This document shows, piece after piece, positions 3,852-56,881 of a stretch of 64,000 nucleotides of DNA; within the stretch, counting starts at the first letter, position 1, and every line of letters starts with the position of its first letter. Position numbers and translations under genes: made by a program. This DNA is from an uncultured Candidatus Saccharibacteria bacterium. GTDB taxonomy: Bacteria; Patescibacteriota; Saccharimonadia; Saccharimonadales; JALRHH01. Where the stretch lies: positions 11,096 to 75,095 of the forward strand of contig CAZXDT010000004.1 in the NCBI GenBank assembly GCA_964639295.1. Reading direction: 5' to 3'. The notes beneath the pieces were generated by a model that ran no database searches, was not told the DNA's origin, and saw nothing but the letters and a program-made list of their open reading frames with translations.

Positions 3852-6800
3852 CTAATGGAGTTTGATGTTATCAGCTCCGACAAGCTCTGATATTTCATTC
3901 ATTATGTTCTGTGCGTGAACACGCATAGGCAAACGGATAATTTGCTTAGTGGCCTCTGGGCCAACTACAAGAACAACTTCTGTCTCACCCTGCATGCTGT
4001 CTATCTTACTCTTTAGTGTCATCAGCGTATCAGTATCATCGCTTTGTTCTACACGAATGTACAGACGAGGGTTCACCGGCTCTACGACACTTGGTTTAGG
4101 CGCCATAGCAACCTTTTTAGTTGGCTTAGGAGTCTTCTTTTTCTTGCCGGTTGGTTGATAGGCTGCAGCTTGTTCAGATGTAATCTCACGCGCATCATCT
4201 ACGAGAACTTTTAGATCGTTAGTAGTGTTGCCATCACGATCTTTGGCGTTAATCTTGCCCTTTACATGTACGATTCTGTCACGTTCCCATATGCCAATTG
4301 TCTGTTGGTAGATGCTCGGAAATAGTATAAGTTCGAGCTCAGAGAACTGATCGGCAATCTTTACAAAAGCCATCTTTTGACCTTTTTTGGTCATAATTTC
4401 ACGCATTTCCATGACTGCACCGCCGATACTGACGGCCTTACCATCATGCTCTGGCTTGAGTGTACTGAGCGGGACTGTTTGTTCTGCAAGTATTAATTCA
4501 AATGCCTCAAGTGGATGCTGACTCAAATAGAGCCCTAAGAGTTCACGTTCCCATGTTAACTGATCACGCATGGGATAAATTATAGTTGCAGCCTCTAGTG
4601 CTAACTGTGGTTTCAGATTTGCAGCATCATCTAAGATATTCCCAAATAAATCTACTTGCCCACTTGAACGCTCCTTCTGCAAACGCTGAGCATATGCAAG
4701 CATCACATCAAGGTTGTGTAGCAGATAACTCCGTTCACCAAAGCGGTCCAATGCGCCTGCCTTAATCAGACTATCTAGACCCTTACGGTTAACTATTCGA
4801 GTATTAACACGGGCAAAAAAGTCATCTAAATCCTGGAATTGGCCTTCTTTGCGTGCACGAAGGATTTCTTCCACTGCACCGGTACCAACATTTTTGATTG
4901 CAGCCATGCCGAATCTAATTGCATTGGTTTTAGGTACGACAGCAAATTCAACGAATGATTCGTTCACATCTGGTGGCATGACTTCGATTCCCATGTGCTT
5001 ACACTCTGCGATTTCGATTGCCAAGCGGTCAGTATCGTCATAGTCACTGGTCATAACAGCTGCCATAAATGCTGCTGGGTAGTGCGCTTTTAGATATGCA
5101 GTCTGGTATGCAATCAGGCCATAGCAAGCGGAGTGGGATTTGTTGAAACAATAATCCGCAAAGCCAATAAGCTTGGCCCAAAAATCTTCAATCAATTTAC
5201 GATTAATGCCGTTTTCAATCGCGCCCTCAATAAAGCGCTTCTCCATCTTGAGCATCATGTCACGCTTCTTTTTACCAATAGCTTTACGTAACGTGTCAGC
5301 CTCACCGCCAGTAAACCCACAGACGTCTTTGGAAATCTGCATAAACTGCTCCTGGTAGACTAGTACTCCGTAAGTACTACTGAGTGCTGGCTCCATAGAT
5401 GGGTGATCGTAAACTACTGTTTCGTGTCCATTTTTACGACGGATAAAGGTATCAACTAGCCCAGCACCTAGGGGTCCAGGACGGTATAGAGCACACATAG
5501 CGATAATGTCATCAAACTCTGTCGGTTTGAGGTCTTTTAGGTAGCGTTTCATGCCAGAAGATTCCAGCTGGAACACTCCAGTTGTATCACCTCGCTGGAG
5601 TAGCTGGAAGGTCTTTTCGTCATCCAATGGGATGGTGTTTATATCAACGTCCGTCTTGTAGACTTTCCTGACAATTCGGAGTGCATTCTTGATAGTTGTT
5701 AGGTTACTAAGTCCCAAGAAGTCCATCTTGAGTAATCCTAGCTCTTCAACCGGGCCCATAGAATATTGGGTCGTGACGACACCCTTTTGAGCCATTTCAA
5801 GGGGCGCAAACTTTACGATTGAATCAGGTGCAATCACAACACCCGCTGCGTGCACCCCATGACTCCGAATTGTTCCTTCGAGGATTACTGCCTGGTCAAG
5901 GACCTTCTTAGCAATATCATTTGTCTCGTATTCGCGCTTCAAATCAATATCATTCTTTAGTGAGTCAGCGAGGGGGATATGACGGCCTTGGACTGGTGCC
6001 GGGATCATCTTAGCCAAACGGTCGGCATCTGCGTATGGTACCTGGAGTACACGCGAGACATCACGTACAGCGTTACGCGCAAACATTCGGCCAAAGGTCA
6101 CAATGTTAGCAACACGATCTGTTCCGTATTTTTGTACACAATACTGGATAACCTCATCGCGGCGCGTATCCTGGATATCAATATCGACATCAGGCATAGA
6201 GATACGGTCAGGGTTCAAGAAACGTTCAAACAGTAAGTCATATTCAATTGGGTCAAGTTCTGTGATCTTGAGTGCATACGAGATAATTGATCCTGCCGCT
6301 GATCCACGTCCTGGTCCAAAGACAATTCCTTTGTCCTTACCCCAGTTAATAAAGTCCTGGATGATAAGGAAGTAACCGTTAAAGCCCATGCCTGCAATAA
6401 CGCCCAATTCGTATTCTGCACGAGTAGCAATTTCTTTGGGTAGCGTCTTGATCGCTTGGGGAATAGTTAGTCCCTTGGCTTCGTCTTCTGTTTTGCCACC
6501 ATATCGCCAAGCAAGCCCCCTGTAAACTAGCTTGTGGAGGTATGACTTCTCATCCTCACCTTTTGGTACCGGGAACTTTGGAATGAGGATTTTACCAAGT
6601 TCAATACTGACATCACAACGATCGGCGATCGCCTTGGTATTGGTGATAACTTCTGGGTGATCCTTACCCCAGCGTTCTATGAGCTCTGCCGGTTCCGTGA
6701 CATGCAACGGATAGTCCTTGAGTGACATACGCTTCTCATCACTCAGGAACGAACCAGTACCGACACAAAGTAAAATTTCGTGTGCTTCTTGGTCCTCGTG

Positions 6801-9413: not shown

Positions 9414-10859
9414 CTACACGCCGAGTTGTTTTTTGATGAGTTGTTGGGCAAGGCCTGGGTTGGCTTTGCCTTGGGAGAGTTTCATGACTTGGCCTGTGAG
9501 GAATCCTATGGCTTTCATTTCACCATTCTTGACGTCTTCTGCGGCTTTAGGATTATCTGCGAGGACTTTAGCGACTATCTCTGCAATAGCACCTTCGTCT
9601 GATTCCTGAATAAGGTTCTTACTGGTTGCGATTTGCTCTGGATCACCACCATTTGCAAGGAGTTCTGATAGTACCTCCTTGGCTGCAGTTGAACTGAGCT
9701 TGTTGTCGGCAACCATCTGTGACAATGCAATCAGCTGCTCGTCAGTAGCTTTAGCAGAAGTCTGCTCGGATGACTCTGGCTCTTCTGTCTGGGGGTGCAT
9801 CAGCCAAAATGCTACGCGTTTAGCATGTGATGCATCTGCAAGATTGTAAATACGTCCAACCCGCTGAGCAGTCTCTGGTACAGCAATAATGTCTTCTATT
9901 ACTTCGCTGGTAAGTCCAATCTTGGCAAACATGTCACGATAATCGTTTGGTAGAAGTGGCATCTCTGACTTAACTCGAGCGATAAACTCTTCCGTAACAG
10001 TCACAGGTGGTAAATCAGGGTCCGGGAAGTAACGGTAGTCATGGGCATCTTCCTTGGTACGCTGACTGAACGTAGCGAGTTTAGCATCGTCCCAGCCACG
10101 GGTTTCCTGGATAATCTTGTTGCCCTTTTCTAGTTCATCGATCTGGCGATTAACTTCAAATTCCACTGCCTTTTCAACACTACGGAAAGAGTTAAGGTTC
10201 TTGGTCTCTGTACGTGTACCCATATCACCTGATTTGCTCACACTGACGTTTACGTCAAAACGCATGTTGCCGTAGTACAAATTAGCTTCTGAAACATCTG
10301 CGTACTTCATACGGAGGTATAACTCTTTTGCGAAGGCTTTTGCCTCTGCTGCAGAATGCATATCAGGTTCACTTACAATCTCGAGTAAAGGCGTTCCTGC
10401 GCGGTTAAGATCAACAAGGCTATGATCGCCCCCGCTAGGGTGAGTTGATTTACCAGCATCTGCTTCAAGATGCGCACGAGTAATACTCACAATTTTTGGT
10501 GTACCCTCGACTAAGAATTCAATCTGGCCACCAAGAATTATCGGCTGGTCGAACTGGGTGATCTGGTATCCCATAGGAAGGTCTGGGTAGAAATAATGCT
10601 TGCGATCAAATTTACTAAAGTGTTGTGGGACGGTACCTAGGGCAAACGCTGCACGAGCAGCTAGAGGCACTGCCTCGGCATTCAACACAGGTAATGCGCC
10701 TGGCAAACCAAAGTCAATGTGGTTAACTAGTGTGTTTGGCGGCGCCACACGAGCGTCATTATCGGCACCGCTAAACAATTTAGTCTTAGTTTTAAGCTGT
10801 ACGTGACACTCAATACCAATAGTTACGTTGTACTGTTTTTTAAGTTCTGCCGTAGCCAT
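9414..10859 (-). CDS. gatB: Asp/Glu-tRNA amidotransferase subunit B
   Basis: 481 aa with GIECHVQL, DLNRAGTPLLEIVSEPD and a C-terminal GatB_Yqey region. Confidence 0.95.
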   Translation of the reverse strand: MATAELKKQYNVTIGIECHVQLKTKTKLFSGADNDARVAPPNTLVNHIDFGLPGALPVLNAEAVPLAARAAFALGTVPQHFSKFDRKHYFYPDLPMGYQITQFDQPIILGGQIEFLVEGTPKIVSITRAHLEADAGKSTHPSGGDHSLVDLNRAGTPLLEIVSEPDMHSAAEAKAFAKELYLRMKYADVSEANLYYGNMRFDVNVSVSKSGDMGTRTETKNLNSFRSVEKAVEFEVNRQIDELEKGNKIIQETRGWDDAKLATFSQRTKEDAHDYRYFPDPDLPPVTVTEEFIARVKSEMPLLPNDYRDMFAKIGLTSEVIEDIIAVPETAQRVGRIYNLADASHAKRVAFWLMHPQTEEPESSEQTSAKATDEQLIALSQMVADNKLSSTAAKEVLSELLANGGDPEQIATSKNLIQESDEGAIAEIVAKVLADNPKAAEDVKNGEMKAIGFLTGQVMKLSQGKANPGLAQQLIKKQLGV

Positions 10860-51161: not shown

Positions 51162-52277
51162 CTACTGCACATGCTCCCATGGCAAGCCAGGCTTGCCGAA
51201 GTGACCATATGCAGCGGTTTGCAGGTAAATTGGTTTTCTCAGATCTAGACCTTCGACAATTCCCTGTACTGAAGTATCTAGAAGAGCCTCCGCAAATGCT
51301 TGAATCTTCTCTGCTGGGCTCTTATTAGTACCAAAGGTATCAATAGTAAAGTTCACTGGCTTCTTGGCGCCAATATAGTAGGCCAGAGCAACTTCTGCTT
51401 TGTCAGCAAGACCCGCAGCTACAATATTTTTTGCAATGTATCGGGCGGCGTAGGCACCAGAACGGTCGACTTTACTTGGATCCTTACCGCTAAACGCCCC
51501 ACCACCAACACGCGCATACCCGCCATAACCGTCCACCACGATCTTACGACCGGTAAGCCCTGCGTCAGATGACGGACCTGGCGTGTACCATACGCCTGTA
51601 CCATTTACGACAATATCCTTTTCGGCTATCACATACCCGTAGTTCTTGAGTACTGGCGTAATGATCGTTTCGTAAATATCCTTCCGGACCCGTTCAAGAC
51701 TAATCTCTTCCGCATGGGGCACGGCAATAGTCACGTGCTCAACAGCAACTGGCTTGTCGTCCTCGTATCGAACTACAACCTGAGCCTTACCATCAGGACG
51801 TAAGTGCGGCAGAGTACCGTCCTCACGTGCCGTATCAATTGCTTTAGTCAGTGCATGGGCCAAGGTAATGGGAAGCGGTAAATACTCTGGTGTCTCATTA
51901 CTAGCAAACCCAAACATTAAACCCTGATCACCTGCACCAAAATCATCAACACCGACAGAAATCTCTGCAGATTGTTGGTGTAGATGGTTGTCAATTGGCG
52001 ACTTATCGCTAAAACCCCATTTTGGTTCGGTGTAGCCAAGTCGTGTTATTTCTTTGCGCACAATTGCATCAATATCAATCTTCGCTGTAGTGTTAATCTC
52101 ACCGGCTATCGTCACCCTATCGTGAGCAACCAATGTTTCTACGGCAGTTCTGCCATTCGGATCTTGTGCGAGTACCGCATCAACAATTGCATCGCTAATC
52201 TGATCGGCTACTTTATCGGGGTGTCCTGCACAGACTGATTCACTCGCAAAATGAGTTATAACTTTAGTCTTTGGCAT
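51162..52277 (-). CDS. metK: Methionine adenosyltransferase
   Basis: 371 aa with GHPDKVADQISDA, GAGDQGLMFGFA and GGGAFSGKDPSKVDRS. Confidence 0.95.
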   Translation of the reverse strand: MPKTKVITHFASESVCAGHPDKVADQISDAIVDAVLAQDPNGRTAVETLVAHDRVTIAGEINTTAKIDIDAIVRKEITRLGYTEPKWGFSDKSPIDNHLHQQSAEISVGVDDFGAGDQGLMFGFASNETPEYLPLPITLAHALTKAIDTAREDGTLPHLRPDGKAQVVVRYEDDKPVAVEHVTIAVPHAEEISLERVRKDIYETIITPVLKNYGYVIAEKDIVVNGTGVWYTPGPSSDAGLTGRKIVVDGYGGYARVGGGAFSGKDPSKVDRSGAYAARYIAKNIVAAGLADKAEVALAYYIGAKKPVNFTIDTFGTNKSPAEKIQAFAEALLDTSVQGIVEGLDLRKPIYLQTAAYGHFGKPGLPWEHVQ

Positions 52278-52571: not shown

Positions 52572-52589
52572 GGAATTCGATTATTCAGC

Positions 52590-52707
52590 ATATATCTTTC
52601 CGCTATGGGCGGCTAGATGGAGCACCTTCATGGGTTCACGGCCTTTTCGTGTTACCAAGGGTTGCCGGCAGGTCATTGAGCTAGATCTCTCGCTGCACTC
52701 TATATAT
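52590..52707 (-). promoter_or_regulatory. SAM-I (S-box) riboswitch aptamer
   Basis: Minus strand: P1 ATATAT/ATATAT, J1/2 AGAG, the conserved blocks CCGGCAACC, AAGGTGCTCC and GCGGAAAGAT, and a P4-like hairpin GCCGC-CCATA-GCGG. The P1 3' strand GAAAGATAT can instead pair with the terminator 5' arm, which would form an antiterminator. Confidence 0.75.
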
Positions 52708-52738
52708 TTGTAATTATCAAAGAAAGGCTAAAAGCAGT

Positions 52739-52950: not shown

Positions 52951-53934
52951 TTACGCTTTTTTGTGGGGGATTTTTTTAAGAAAATTCTTATAAGATTTGA
53001 GGTGTTCTATTTTATCCCAAAATTTCTGGAATGTGCGCACAACATACGGTGCTATAAAGTAAGCAGCGACTGCGTATACTCCACCTAGAATTTCGTCAAT
53101 TGCGTAGTGTTCACCCTGGTAAACCGTGCCAAAGTAGATAAATGCCGGATACAGTAAGGACAAATACTTCCAACGTGTTTTGAATAGCTTGAATGCAAAA
53201 ATGGCAAATAGCGTGGCATATGCAGCATGTAATGATGGTACAGCTGCAACTGGGTTTGGTGAGATCCTGTTATAGACAGATGGAAAGTCGTGAATACCAA
53301 GTGATGACCATACACTACTGGACACACGCTGGATTGGCTCAATCAGCCCCATATCACTCGCCATCCATGGCGGTGCAGCCGGGAAAGCCAAGAATGTCAA
53401 AAAGCCCAGGAACGAAACAGTGAGGTACGACGTCGCGTAGTGCCAATAGTGCGAATCCCTCAGCCGCCACACCACAAACGCCAGAGCAAATGGCAATACA
53501 AAGTGCAGCATATAGGTGATATAGAGCACGAAGTCATACCACTGCACCGTACCGTGCCATAGATGTTGCTGCAACCATGCAGTTGGTAAGTGACCCAAGA
53601 ACAAGAACTTATCAGCATCCGGCATCCACATGTAGTTCACGTGATTGTTGAGATGCGGCACAATACCGCGGAAAGATTCGTACACGAGCAGCAAGCCGAC
53701 AAATGGCACAAAACGCTTCAGCATTTCCTCTGCTTGTTTAAATATCAAACAGATAAATGTCGCAAAAACCAACAGCTTATCTGGTGTCGGAAAACTTGGC
53801 TCACGAATAAAGATACCAATGCTAACAATTGTCGCGAGTAAACCGACAATTTGCATCTTCTGAAGTTTTGGTAGCTGCACCGCTCTATTATATACAACGG
53901 CCCTGAAAATAACTTGGGAAATAAGAAAACTCAC
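52951..53934 (-). CDS. PAP2-superfamily membrane phosphatase/phosphotransferase
   Basis: Polytopic 327-aa ORF with the AAVPSLHAAYA motif. The GTG start at 53934 is uncertain; the ATG at 53856 is an alternative. Confidence 0.7.
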   Translation of the reverse strand: MSFLISQVIFRAVVYNRAVQLPKLQKMQIVGLLATIVSIGIFIREPSFPTPDKLLVFATFICLIFKQAEEMLKRFVPFVGLLLVYESFRGIVPHLNNHVNYMWMPDADKFLFLGHLPTAWLQQHLWHGTVQWYDFVLYITYMLHFVLPFALAFVVWRLRDSHYWHYATSYLTVSFLGFLTFLAFPAAPPWMASDMGLIEPIQRVSSSVWSSLGIHDFPSVYNRISPNPVAAVPSLHAAYATLFAIFAFKLFKTRWKYLSLLYPAFIYFGTVYQGEHYAIDEILGGVYAVAAYFIAPYVVRTFQKFWDKIEHLKSYKNFLKKIPHKKA

Positions 53935-53970
53935 TCAGTTCAAGCCGGATAGTATGTATAATTAGAACAC

Positions 53971-54561
53971 ATGCAGATAAAGCACCTGAGACCACCCATG
54001 CTCGTTTTTGGACTTGTGATCCTGGTTGTTGCACTTGGAATAATGATTGGCCAAACTTTTAGACGGGAGGTACCATCCGTGGAGCCCGCAGTTCAGACCG
54101 TAGAAGGCGCAAAACTAACACTTACAAGCATTGCTTTTGATTCAGAGCAGGCTATTCCTTCTGTGTATACCTGTAGCGGTGCCAATGTTAATCCGCCATT
54201 ATCTATAGAAAACCCACCAGGTAATGCTAAAGAATTTGTGCTTATAATGCACGACCCAAATGCTTCAAATGGCGATTGGGTACACTGGACACTTTGGAAT
54301 ATACCCGTCGATACTACTAATATAGCCGAGCATTCGGTACCAGCTGGCACGACAGAAGGCGTCACCAGTTTTGGTATCGCTGGATATGGTGGCCCTTGCT
54401 CACCTAACGGCAGTGGTACGCATCGATATATATTTGAGCTATACGCACTGAATGACACCATTAGCCTGGATCCCAAGACTTCTCGTGACGGCCTAGTATC
54501 TGCAATGAACGGTAAAATCCTAGCACGTACGCAGCTCGTCGGTATTGTAAAATCTAAGTAA
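53971..54561 (+). CDS. YbhB/YbcL-family PEBP (Raf-kinase-inhibitor-like) protein
   Basis: 196 aa with an N-terminal transmembrane helix, then NPPLSIENPP...LIMHDPNA...WVHW...GYGGPCSP.GSGTHRYIFELYAL. Confidence 0.9.
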   Translation: MQIKHLRPPMLVFGLVILVVALGIMIGQTFRREVPSVEPAVQTVEGAKLTLTSIAFDSEQAIPSVYTCSGANVNPPLSIENPPGNAKEFVLIMHDPNASNGDWVHWTLWNIPVDTTNIAEHSVPAGTTEGVTSFGIAGYGGPCSPNGSGTHRYIFELYALNDTISLDPKTSRDGLVSAMNGKILARTQLVGIVKSK

Positions 54562-54563
54562 TC

Positions 54564-54719
54564 TTAGAATGTACGTGGAGTTTGTTCGTACTCCCAGAAT
54601 GATAATTCGCTCGTATCTTGCGTGTCTCTACGACTCGGCCTACTTGAGTGATTACTATATTTGATCGTCTTCCAGATATATTTGACGCGCTGCTTGGCAA
54701 CAAATTGTCGACTGTTCAT
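54564..54719 (-). CDS. Hypothetical 51-aa basic protein (not in the ORF track), coupled to the upstream 66-aa ORF
   Basis: Hand translation is MNSRQFVAKQRVKYIWKTIKYSNHSSRPSRRDTQDTSELSFWEYEQTPRTF. Its ATG overlaps the upstream stop (ATGA). Confidence 0.4.
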   Translation of the reverse strand: MNSRQFVAKQRVKYIWKTIKYSNHSSRPSRRDTQDTSELSFWEYEQTPRTF

Positions 54720-54916
54720 GACATGCCCCCATGACCACCAAACTGTCTTACATTGAGCCCAAATTTTACTTGTGGGACCAATCGTGTTTGATATAACGAC
54801 GGGCTTCTTTGTGCAAGTCGGTGCACATCATCGGATTTCCAAGAGTTTTGTTTTGAGGTTTGGGTCTTTGCAGTACTTCGATTTGTTTTAGCATTAATAA
54901 CAGTATCGTGACTCAT
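54716..54916 (-). CDS. Hypothetical 66-aa basic protein
   Basis: A strong Shine-Dalgarno sequence (AAGGGGGAAAT) precedes the ATG. A CRP-type box lies about 70 nt upstream. Confidence 0.5.
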   Translation of the reverse strand: MSHDTVINAKTNRSTAKTQTSKQNSWKSDDVHRLAQRSPSLYQTRLVPQVKFGLNVRQFGGHGGMS

Positions 54917-54986
54917 ATTTCCCCCTTGTAAGTCATAGTATTGATCAAGTTGTTTCTTTATTCAGTGCCAATCATCACCGTACTTA

Positions 54987-55002
54987 CGTGATTATTATCA
55001 CA
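54987..55002. promoter_or_regulatory. CRP/FNR-type box 3
   Basis: cGTGA-TTATTA-TCACa, located between the crp-family stop codon and the small-ORF pair. Confidence 0.5.
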
Positions 55003-55015
55003 AGTAGGAATCTGA

Positions 55016-55714
55016 CTATTTCTGCCTGAGGTGAGGCCATGTATTCATGACTTCCTCTGCCCCCATTGTCTGCGCTAAAGCTGAGGGATCCCTGATAATG
55101 AAGTACCCTTTGCCATCTTGCTTAATGAGCCCTTGTCGCTCCATCTTCTCAATCATTCGGCTCGCTGTCTCACGGGTTACACTCACCGCATCGGCAATTT
55201 GTTGATGACGAAAAGCCAGCGGGATATACCAACCATCTTCATGTTTAACGCCCAGTCTCCCAGCAAGGTACAGTAATCGATAGGCTACTTTGTCATATGC
55301 ATTATTAAATGCCAGGTTCTCTACGCGAGCTTTGAGACTAAATATCTGACGCATCATGATGTTATTCACTTCTTGCATCAATTCAGGATCTTTTTCTATG
55401 GCCGCCTTAACCACATCTGCCTCAAGACGTGTGACGGTTACGTCAGTAAACGCTTCCCGGAAGACGTTTTGGTTAATACCCAGGAACGCCCAAATAATAG
55501 AGAATAATTCGCCGGGGCCATAGAGAACGTGAAACCGTTCACTACCGTCTTTTGCCAAAGTATATTCTTTGACATAACCCTCTGCCAAAAAATAAACCCC
55601 TCGCGGGGTTTCATTGGCACGTTGGATGATCTCACCCTTCTTGTAGTCAAGCTTTCGCCCGCTTCCAAAGAGCTCTACTATTTGCGGATGGGGTACATTT
55701 AGTCCGTATTTCAT
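55016..55714 (-). CDS. Crp/Fnr-family transcriptional regulator
   Basis: 232 aa with an N-terminal cNMP-binding beta-roll and a C-terminal HTH (VSVTRETASRMIEKMERQGLI). Confidence 0.9.
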   Translation of the reverse strand: MKYGLNVPHPQIVELFGSGRKLDYKKGEIIQRANETPRGVYFLAEGYVKEYTLAKDGSERFHVLYGPGELFSIIWAFLGINQNVFREAFTDVTVTRLEADVVKAAIEKDPELMQEVNNIMMRQIFSLKARVENLAFNNAYDKVAYRLLYLAGRLGVKHEDGWYIPLAFRHQQIADAVSVTRETASRMIEKMERQGLIKQDGKGYFIIRDPSALAQTMGAEEVMNTWPHLRQK

Positions 55715-55837: not shown

Positions 55838-55879
55838 AAAGGAAGCTCTCCACCCCTCTAGCATCAGATACAAAATTCT

Positions 55880-55887
55880 TGTATAAT
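55880..55887 (+). promoter_or_regulatory. Extended -10 element upstream of tRNA-Gln
   Basis: TGTATAAT, 24 nt upstream of the mature tRNA 5' end. Confidence 0.5.
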
Positions 55888-55910
55888 CCACTGGTCCAAC
55901 ACCCAAACAA

Positions 55911-55985
55911 TGGGATGTCGCCAAGTGGTAAGGCACTGGTTTCTGGTACCAGCATTCGGGGGTTCGAATCCCTCCATCCCAGCCA
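55911..55985 (+). tRNA. tRNA-Gln (anticodon CUG), CCA encoded
   Basis: Hand-folded cloverleaf: acceptor TGGGATG/CATCCCA, 3-bp D stem GCC/GGC, anticodon arm CTGGT-TTCTGGT-ACCAG, T arm GGGGG-TTCGAAT-CCCTC, discriminator G, then CCA. The architecture matches E. coli tRNA-Gln. Confidence 0.95.
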
Positions 55986-55992
55986 AAATATG

Positions 55993-56030
55993 AAGTCCAT
56001 CTGCAAATTGCAGTTTGGACTTTTTATTTT
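55993..56030 (+). terminator. Intrinsic terminator after tRNA-Gln
   Basis: AAGTCCA-t-CTGCA-aat-TGCAG-tt-TGGACTT followed by TTTTATTTT. Confidence 0.75.
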
Positions 56031-56240
56031 GGCCTGTGCGGATTGGGGATTCGAACGGGACTGCCAGTGGCAGTCCCCGCCCCTTGCCCCAGAAAGGCCT
56101 ATGGCCTTTGGGGTCGTCTAAGCAGAATATTTTGTTCTGCGGACGAGGCGAATCCCTCCGTTTACGATCGTGAGTCGAACCCCTCTTCTTACAGTCATGT
56201 ACTACCTTCCACATAAGAAAAGTGACTCCGGTCACAGTCT
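56031..56240 (-). ncRNA. Unclassified GC-rich structured RNA candidate with tRNA-like T-loop motifs
   Basis: Non-coding, and more G+C-rich than its flanks. The minus strand carries GGGTTCGAC, GGGATTCGCC and CGTTCGAATCCCC...GGCCA. Hairpins lie at 56057..56077 (9 bp), 56087..56113, 56122..56140 and 56222..56235. No canonical cloverleaf could be folded. Confidence 0.4.
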
Positions 56241-56269
56241 CGTTAGTTATAGAAAGTTATAATTAATAT

Positions 56270-56881
56270 ATGAAGACTGACTACAAGAAAGAATTAAAGC
56301 AATTCTACACCGGGAAAGTTAACAAACCCGTCGTCGTACAGCTGCCAAAAATGAACTTTATTATGATAGATGGTAAGGGTGACCCTAATACAAGCCAGGA
56401 ATACATTGATGCTATTCAGGCTCTCTACCCTGTTGCATATACGATCAAATTCACAAGCAAGAATAAGTATGGTCAAGATTTTGGTGTTATGCCACTTGAA
56501 GGCCTCTGGTGGACAGAAGACATGGCCCAATTTAGCACCAAAGACAAGAGTGACTGGCTCTGGACAGCAATGATCATGCAGCCCGATATAATCACTGAAG
56601 ACGTCTTCAATGAAGCCTTCCAACAGGTCAGACAGAAAAAATCCCCCAAATCCTTAGATAAACTTCGCTTTGCATCATACGAGGAAGGCAGGGCGGCACA
56701 AGTATTATATGTTGGCCCCTACTCTGAAGAAGGCCCAACAATACAAGAACTGCATGGCTTCATAAAGGAACAGGGCGGCGTACTTGAGGCAAGCACAAAA
56801 CACCATCATGAGATCTATCTCGGTGACCCTAGACGAACTGACCCAACCAAACTTAAGACTATTATTCGCCAACCCTTTTAA
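56270..56881 (+). CDS. GyrI-like small-molecule-binding domain protein
   Basis: 203 aa with IMIDGKGDPNTS, PLEGLWW and YLGDPRRT patterns typical of the GyrI-like family. Confidence 0.8.
   Translation: MKTDYKKELKQFYTGKVNKPVVVQLPKMNFIMIDGKGDPNTSQEYIDAIQALYPVAYTIKFTSKNKYGQDFGVMPLEGLWWTEDMAQFSTKDKSDWLWTAMIMQPDIITEDVFNEAFQQVRQKKSPKSLDKLRFASYEEGRAAQVLYVGPYSEEGPTIQELHGFIKEQGGVLEASTKHHHEIYLGDPRRTDPTKLKTIIRQPF

Follow-up and report, generated by a model that had tools for sequence, protein, structure and literature searches.

The structured non-coding element that follows the tRNA-Gln gene in the window (the whole 64-kb stretch of DNA analyzed here) is built from copies of that tRNA's T arm and 3′ end, and we read it, at about even confidence, as a product of site-specific recombination at tRNA-Gln (a cargo-less module or a remnant) and not as an RNA gene. 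Copy relationships to the tRNA, recurrence of the layout at about a quarter of related loci, presence or absence of whole units and cargo between core copies were all observed. The original prediction had proposed a tRNA-like RNA, possibly of a new class. That interpretation is largely replaced, and the apparent new RNA class resolved into copies of the neighboring tRNA-Gln.

The genome is Saccharibacteria-like, and MetK (51162–52277, minus strand) is 75% identical to that of the metagenome-assembled Candidatus Saccharibacteria genome L003. The exact locus also occurs in the read sets SRR8931239 and SRR8931241. A SAM-I riboswitch (RF00162) was recognized in the MetK leader at 52589–52710 on the minus strand, with a score of 48.8 bits that is just above the gathering score of 44.4. 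MetK and tRNA-Gln are ~330 nt apart in L003; in the window they are separated by PAP2, PEBP-family and Crp-type regulator genes (52951–55714), and PAP2 and PEBP-family genes are likewise found there in L005. The element is flanked by genes for the Crp-type regulator, a GyrI-like protein (56270–56881) and a protein with an LPG_synthase_TM domain. The open reading frames listed in the region comprise two on the plus strand (52 and 57 aa) and one of 123 aa on the minus strand, which runs through tRNA-Gln as had been noted. The terminator after tRNA-Gln is a long hairpin flanked on either side by T runs, its left arm starting with the tRNA's own GCCA and its right arm ending in TGGC (56030–56033). 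The minus-strand GCCA that had been taken for a tRNA-like 3′ end is therefore the complement of this TGGC, which belongs to the right arm of the terminator and pairs with the GCCA of tRNA-Gln.

Table 1. Features of tRNA-Gln and the adjoining element in the window.
Feature	Position	Strand	Description
tRNA-Gln(CUG)	55911–55985	+	Intact; ARAGORN; Rfam RF00005, 61.4 bits
Core	55958–55985	+	T arm and 3′ end of tRNA-Gln; source of the copies in the element
Extended palindromic terminator	55982–56033		Arms 55982–55999 and 56016–56033, 89% complementary; repeat analysis and sequence
Left repeat, CTGTGCGGATTGGGGATTCGAAC	56034–56056		Degenerate inverted copy of tRNA-Gln from T loop to discriminator, mirrored across the terminator
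Hairpin H1, GGGACTGCC-AGT-GGCAGTCCC	56057–56077		9-bp perfect stem; CC-AGY-GG triloop type
Hairpin H2, CCCC-AG-AAAGGCC-TAT-GGCCTTT-GGGG	56087–56113		Bulged; every pair Watson–Crick; in the MFE fold of both strands
Hairpin H3, TCGTC-TAA-GCAGAA-TATTTTG-TTCTGC-G-GACGA	56114–56146		Two-tier; in the MFE folds of both strands
Right repeat, CGAATCCCTCC	56149–56159	+	Exact direct copy of tRNA-Gln 55965–55975; repeat analysis and local alignment
Second direct copy, CGAACCCCTCT	56176–56186	+	Degenerate, 82%; repeat analysis and sequence
Palindrome, GTGAC-TCCG-GTCAC	56222–56235		Terminator-like match on the minus strand; 35 nt upstream of the GyrI-like gene

The locus runs from the direct core within tRNA-Gln through the terminator to an inverted core, three hairpins (56057–56146), a direct core and a decayed core (Table 1). 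The motifs, the 9-bp stem, the bulged stem, the 6-bp stem and the GTGAC palindrome on which the original prediction had been built are all in place, the 6-bp stem with its 7-nt loop (56122–56140) being the inner part of the H3 arm (56114–56146). The left repeat was recovered by blastn as an inverted match to the tRNA (82% over 33 nt); local alignment scored it 13 (z = 5.4 against shuffles), and both repeat analysis and blastn showed that 56016–56056 imperfectly mirrors 55962–55999 across the terminator loop. Inside the left repeat, GGGGATTCGAA (56045–56055) in addition matches, in direct orientation and at 91%, the 5′ half of the tRNA-Gln T arm; the source of the right repeat (55965–55975) comprises the 3′ half of the T loop and the 3′ strand of the T stem. 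The plus strand carries a partial tRNA-Gln T arm whose halves, GGGGATTCGAA and CGAATCCCTCC, are separated by ~90 nt of hairpins. The suggestion of a disrupted or insertion-bearing tRNA gene had come closest to this arrangement, although a whole tRNA is present on neither strand.

On the minus strand, GAGGGGTTCGACTC (56172–56185), GGAGGGATTCGCC (56147–56159) and GTTCGAATCCCC (56045–56056) are the three motifs that had been described as T loops; the sequences are there, as copies of T-arm halves of tRNA-Gln. On the recombination reading, such motifs would arise because the T arm is itself a dyad, its halves being the repeated, putative recombination core. Downstream of the intact tRNA-Gln there are two direct copies, one exact over 11 nt and one at 82%, the pattern of a tRNA attachment (att) remnant, and by eye the flank of the copy at 56176–56186 (..TTAC..) resembles that of the copy at 56149–56159. 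The GTGAC-TCCG-GTCAC palindrome might serve as an operator or as a terminator-like site for the minus strand, and its belonging to the module is uncertain. No second copy of the element was found by blastn within the 64-kb window.

Searches for known RNAs recovered only the tRNA-Gln gene itself. ARAGORN returned nothing credible on either strand in default or relaxed mode, with introns allowed or with hairpins H1–H3 deleted: tRNA-Gln 55911–55985 was the only call at default, and the relaxed mode (-ps80) added one mispaired 94-nt call at 56160–56253. Whether removal of H1 (56057–56077) would restore a foldable tRNA had been raised as a check; ARAGORN found none, nor did it after deletion of any combination of H1, H2 and H3. 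No tmRNA was detected by the ARAGORN tmRNA mode or by Rfam. Rfam 15 was searched with the window at the gathering threshold and at E ≤ 10 and with 14 related loci at E ≤ 0.1. There was no credible match at E ≤ 10 in 55850–56330 besides tRNA-Gln, no covariance model of families including Y RNA, 6S, SRP and riboswitches matched the element in the window, and the related loci yielded tRNA-Gln only. The statement that the element matches no known RNA class is upheld by these searches. Among the fetched loci, nhmmer and blastn detected no sequence homologs of the element, and in an exact-pattern scan of the viral contigs neither H1 nor the class A hairpin was found. Several other identities were set aside on reading the sequence only: a retron non-coding RNA (no reverse transcriptase), a group I or II intron (no intron core), an invertible promoter (none seen inside the hairpins) and an integron attC site (the RYYYAAC/GTTRRRY core is absent).

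Two known groupings share part of this architecture. The element shares its GTTCGAATCC-type motifs and four-way-junction topology with the tRNA, tmRNA and tRNA-like RNAs of Rfam clan CL00001, as well as its place beside a tRNA gene and terminator. In contrast to them, it is without acceptor stem, D arm and T arm, its arms measure 9–13 bp, its T-loop sequences are strands of one long helix, and covariance models and ARAGORN reject it; the earlier failure to build a canonical cloverleaf was borne out. Miniature inverted-repeat transposable elements (MITEs) and REP-type repeats are likewise small non-coding sequences bounded by terminal inverted repeats, and their hairpin folds are strong and equal on both strands. 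Unlike these, the element occurs once in 64 kb, with no further copy at sequence level in 2.4 Mb of related loci; it is tied to one tRNA gene, implies no transposase family, and has tRNA T-arm halves as its 'terminal repeats'.

The layout recurs at related loci. Metagenome contigs were scanned with the tRNA-Gln sequence common to the window and L003, giving 120 loci (109 distinct), and 27 of the 109 distinct contigs contain, downstream of tRNA-Gln and its terminator, a directly repeated copy of the tRNA 3′ part, at a distance of 45–445 nt in most. These copies span 14–23 nt in the relatives versus 11 exact nt in the window. Loci with the direct copy also carry an inverted one immediately past the terminator (mean local score 9.2 versus 5.7, p = 3e-7); the layout of the family after tRNA-Gln is terminator, inverted copy, hairpins and direct copy. 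In the MFE fold of every element the left repeat and the core copy form the closing helix, in a varying register, namely GGGATTCG:CGAATCCC in the window, L169 and L128, GGATGAGGG:CCCTCATCC in L101, and GGGATGAG:CTCATCCC in L165, L176 and L003. The window, L100, L115, L128 and L169 also share TGTG..GGGATTCGAA at equal offset.

An NNNNN-CC-AGY-GG-NNNNN hairpin stands 84–100 nt after the T arm in the window, L100, L119, L121, L165 and L169, and ~12 such hairpins occur elsewhere in the 4.7 Mb searched. Stems vary with pairing kept (86% of cells paired; 9 of 10 pairs changed on both sides), a count that is partly circular because the set was picked for complementarity; the positional enrichment is independent evidence. 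As nhmmer and blastn link no relative to the window element, family membership rests on layout and short motifs. Synteny with MetK is common to only 6 of ~120 loci, suggesting that the metagenome contigs are taxonomically wide-ranging. By eye, the class C relatives L100, L121, L143 and L169, together with a downstream part of L200, contain two highly conserved blocks, TTCCGATGACGATTGATCGTCAAT.GTGAA and, beside the core copy, GGGGTCGCGG.ACGTGACC; L181 has a 20-nt loop expansion in the second. A separate common motif, GTTTGGTTA(C/G)TCAT, was noted ~60–90 nt after tRNA-Gln in L098, L107 and L137. On the opposite strand AGGAG(G/A) and ATG precede it, and an open reading frame starting there would run towards tRNA-Gln, through the terminator.

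Whole units are present at some loci and absent at their homologs, as seen in three occupied/empty site pairs (L193/L132, L121/L164 and L187/L207). L193 carries a 121-bp unit of terminator, hairpin body and core copy, and its flank past this unit aligns at the same offset with the L132 sequence directly after the tRNA (76.5% over 392 nt). Such pairs could reflect insertion or deletion between repeats, and they do not give the direction. Among the loci syntenic for MetK, the closest relative (L095, 79% MetK identity) has a plain terminator only and no element; L003 and L165 have another unit class, and L149, L191 and L145 have none. An empty-site relative of the window locus with its own right flank was not found among the related loci.

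Cargo was found between core copies at several loci, including a Fic protein gene in L143 and 3 kb in L003, both of which have a second terminator-plus-hairpin unit beside the distal core copy. In L105 and L181, stand-alone GIY-YIG proteins of 82–87 aa (Pfam PF01541) are the sole cargo between tRNA-Gln and the core copy and may represent a homing-type cassette. L105 also contains a tRNA-Ala(GGC) gene (10314–10390) followed within 180 nt by two tandem 89-nt units, each ending in a tRNA-Ala copy that spans the D-loop region through CCA and has CCCCGACGCATCGGGG in place of the anticodon arm.

Phages that encode tyrosine integrases probably use tRNA-Gln as an attachment site: a Phage_integrase gene lies directly beside tRNA-Gln in viral contigs L089 and L233, and the partial tRNA-Gln copies in L212, L218, L219, L229 and L231 are read as phage att sites. 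By tblastn and motif scan, no integrase was detected in the 64-kb window, and one was near tRNA-Gln at only 1 of ~120 metagenome loci, such genes being found in just L089 and L233. Any recombinase for the element would therefore act in trans.

The region 56025–56245 folds into equally stable structures on the minus strand (−89.0 kcal/mol, z = −4.9) and the plus strand (−88.8 kcal/mol, z = −5.2), with 0 of 200 shuffles as stable in either case; together with a GC content of 0.56–0.59 versus 0.45 for the window, this agrees with its description as GC-rich and highly structured. In the MFE fold of either strand 56045–56053 pairs with 56149–56157 and closes a four-way junction around the three hairpins, which makes the T-loop-like sequences the two strands of one helix and not loops. 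Only 2–3 of the ~47 predicted pairs in the window element are G-U on either strand, mismatches in the CC-AGY-GG hairpins are divided between G-T (4) and A-C (3), and alifold energies and G-U counts are alike on both strands in three classes. Single-sequence and alignment folds favor the minus strand for class A and slightly the plus strand for classes B and C. No consistent strand was found from MFE, alifold energies or G-U versus A-C counts. This evidence favors, short of proof, DNA-level palindromes rather than a transcript fold. The proposed new RNA class keeps some probability, although evidence specific to RNA was not found for the element.

Transcribed readings were weighed against these data. 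A structured plus-strand RNA derived from tRNA-Gln, made by read-through of the terminator, would resemble tRNA-Gln with expanded arms and end in tRNA 3′ sequence, and might be processed by tRNA enzymes or switch between pairing of the tRNA 3′ half and of the decoy copy. We regard it as unlikely. The four-way junction is cloverleaf-like, classes B and D as read keep T-stem-like and acceptor-like pairings and end ..CCCAGCCA, and the plus-strand fold is slightly the better one in classes B and C, but the strong intrinsic terminator upstream means that a plus-strand transcript would need read-through, and no promoter of the element's own was seen by eye in the 10–20 nt after the terminator. Class A, moreover, has its better fold on the minus strand, no T stem forms, searches with ARAGORN and Rfam were negative, and the closest relative (L095) lacks the element. 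There is still less to recommend the minus-strand gene originally envisaged, a tRNA-like, tmRNA-derived or Y-RNA-like RNA convergent on tRNA-Gln and ending at the shared bidirectional terminator, which we judge very improbable. Its fold is as strong as that of the plus strand, a bidirectional terminator does follow, and a weak promoter-like TTCATA-N17-TATAAC site lies near 56245–56275 (by eye; not called by the scan). Against this, its 'GCCA end' and 'T loops' are complements of tRNA-Gln, mirroring that gene; neither T arm nor acceptor stem exists, ARAGORN at default gave nothing beyond tRNA-Gln and in relaxed mode only the mispaired call, an overall G-U bias for the minus strand is absent, and occurrence is patchy among close relatives. 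In the relatives, with flanks as read, the element sits between two terminators or abuts a plus-strand gene, so that a minus-strand promoter could not be accommodated. A plus-strand 5′ leader or riboswitch controlling the GyrI-like gene would fit the position of the element (directly upstream, in the same orientation, GC-rich and structured), but GyrI-like homologs with 76–83% identity occur in five unrelated contexts, none with the element upstream. The element is thus not their leader and goes with tRNA-Gln instead of the GyrI-like gene; this lack of co-occurrence refutes the idea, and we give it next to no credence.

The GyrI-like gene was found directly downstream of a tRNA or tRNA fragment in several places, namely tRNA-Ala(CGC) in L087 (4863–4938) and L088 and tRNA-Gln in the window, and PIN, transposase and toxin genes are among its neighbors in L085 and L086, which suggests that it travels as island cargo. 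Upstream of GyrI-like homologs in two unrelated gene contexts (~4715–4750 in L083 and L084; ~4780–4815 in L085) lies a conserved 32-nt motif, GGTGTTCGAAACAAAGCGCGTCAAGC(G/A)CACCA, followed by a terminator. In appearance it combines half of a T arm with a hairpin whose end reads ..CACCA, and it may be a further att remnant of tRNA origin and similar build. In L083, L084 and L086 (~4860–5000) a conserved upstream open reading frame of ~44 codons, as read, starts ATGATAAATAA(G/A)CTTTGGCAC... and extends up to the GyrI-like start; it is absent from the window.

A DNA-level alternative needs no recombinase. Template switching or fold-back at the terminator hairpin could have copied the tRNA 3′ end in inverted form, a second fold-back could have given the direct copy, and templated correction of the quasi-palindrome would then keep the hairpins perfect with no selection. 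We consider such palindrome growth unlikely, if worth keeping in view. It would account for nested, nearly pure Watson–Crick palindromes with no strand bias and for a neighborhood in which no recombinase gene lies nearby, and in L140 the left and right repeats, as read, are more alike than either is to the tRNA, consistent with copying of one arm from the other. Left unexplained, however, are the all-or-none occurrence of complete units at homologous sites, the cargo genes between core copies, and the same-loop CC-AGY-GG hairpin that recurs at the same offset in distant loci with differing stems.

Under the preferred reading, a cargo-less module or remnant of recombination, site-specific exchange at the T arm of tRNA-Gln would have created the module, which could be a miniature non-autonomous integrated element or its remnant, much like a cis-mobilizable element. 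A recombinase, if any, would be supplied in trans, and the palindromes formed by the hairpins and closing helix would exist at the DNA level and might still serve as a recombination substrate. Several points count against this reading. With just 11 nt, the direct copy in the window is a weak point, and a unit of 120–200 bp is very small for a double-stranded circular intermediate. Modules flanked by att sites are known at tRNA genes, but neither the inverted core copy nor the conserved, covarying hairpins that recur here are accounted for by ordinary double-strand integration.

Cis-mobilizable elements (CIMEs) of streptococci are decayed or cargo-only remnants of integrative elements that target tRNA genes. 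Partial tRNA copies left by successive integrations are a hallmark of tRNA-targeting islands, as described for tycheposons (preprint, 10.1101/2020.12.28.424599). The tRNA-Gln loci resemble CIMEs and the partial-tRNA arrays of tycheposons in having an intact tRNA followed by direct copies of its 3′ part, units that are present or absent, tandem accretion, cargo between copies, no recombination genes in the unit and phage integrases that probably use the tRNA. They differ in that the units are 120–200 bp and gene-less, that a recombinase gene is almost never nearby, and that an extra inverted core and conserved hairpins fold with the core into a closed multi-branch structure.

This last feature has a parallel in sites that recombine as folded DNA. 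The attC site of integrons is a folded site with inverted repeats and a variable terminal structure. In CTXphi, attP(+) comprises two inverted dif-like sites ~90 nt apart that form a forked hairpin used by XerCD; the phage integrates this folded single-stranded attP(+), and three site copies remain (PMC3089051). Common to these systems and the element are inverted cores separated by 40–130 nt whose folding restores the duplex core as a stem, with a variable, branched center. In the window the inverted cores pair as 56045–56053:56149–56157, and such pairing holds across the family. The order of core copies, direct, inverted and direct, is also that of integrated CTXphi. By analogy, terminator, inverted core, hairpins and direct core may form a folded-DNA attachment site that mimics the duplex tRNA target, an idea we put forward as speculative and rather unlikely. 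The likeness is one of architecture only: the target here is a tRNA T arm and not dif or attI, no recombinase or replication gene is linked to the element, and its strands show no asymmetry; any Xer or IntI link, single-stranded stage or strand-specific extrahelical bases would be hypothetical here.

These results offer a caution for the discovery of non-coding RNAs, as T-loop-like motifs and a CCA-like end beside a tRNA may be copies of its recombination core. They also reveal a previously unannotated, recurrent layout at tRNA-Gln in small-genome Saccharibacteria-like bacteria, in which few mobile-element genes are recognizable. If mobile, the units would be among the smallest integrative elements known and would point to folded-DNA recombination at a tRNA target. 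Should the folded attachment site prove true, they would constitute a new family of tiny, integron-cassette-like mobile units that stack at tRNA-Gln in Saccharibacteria, either empty or carrying Fic, GIY-YIG or other cargo, with the recombinase encoded elsewhere.
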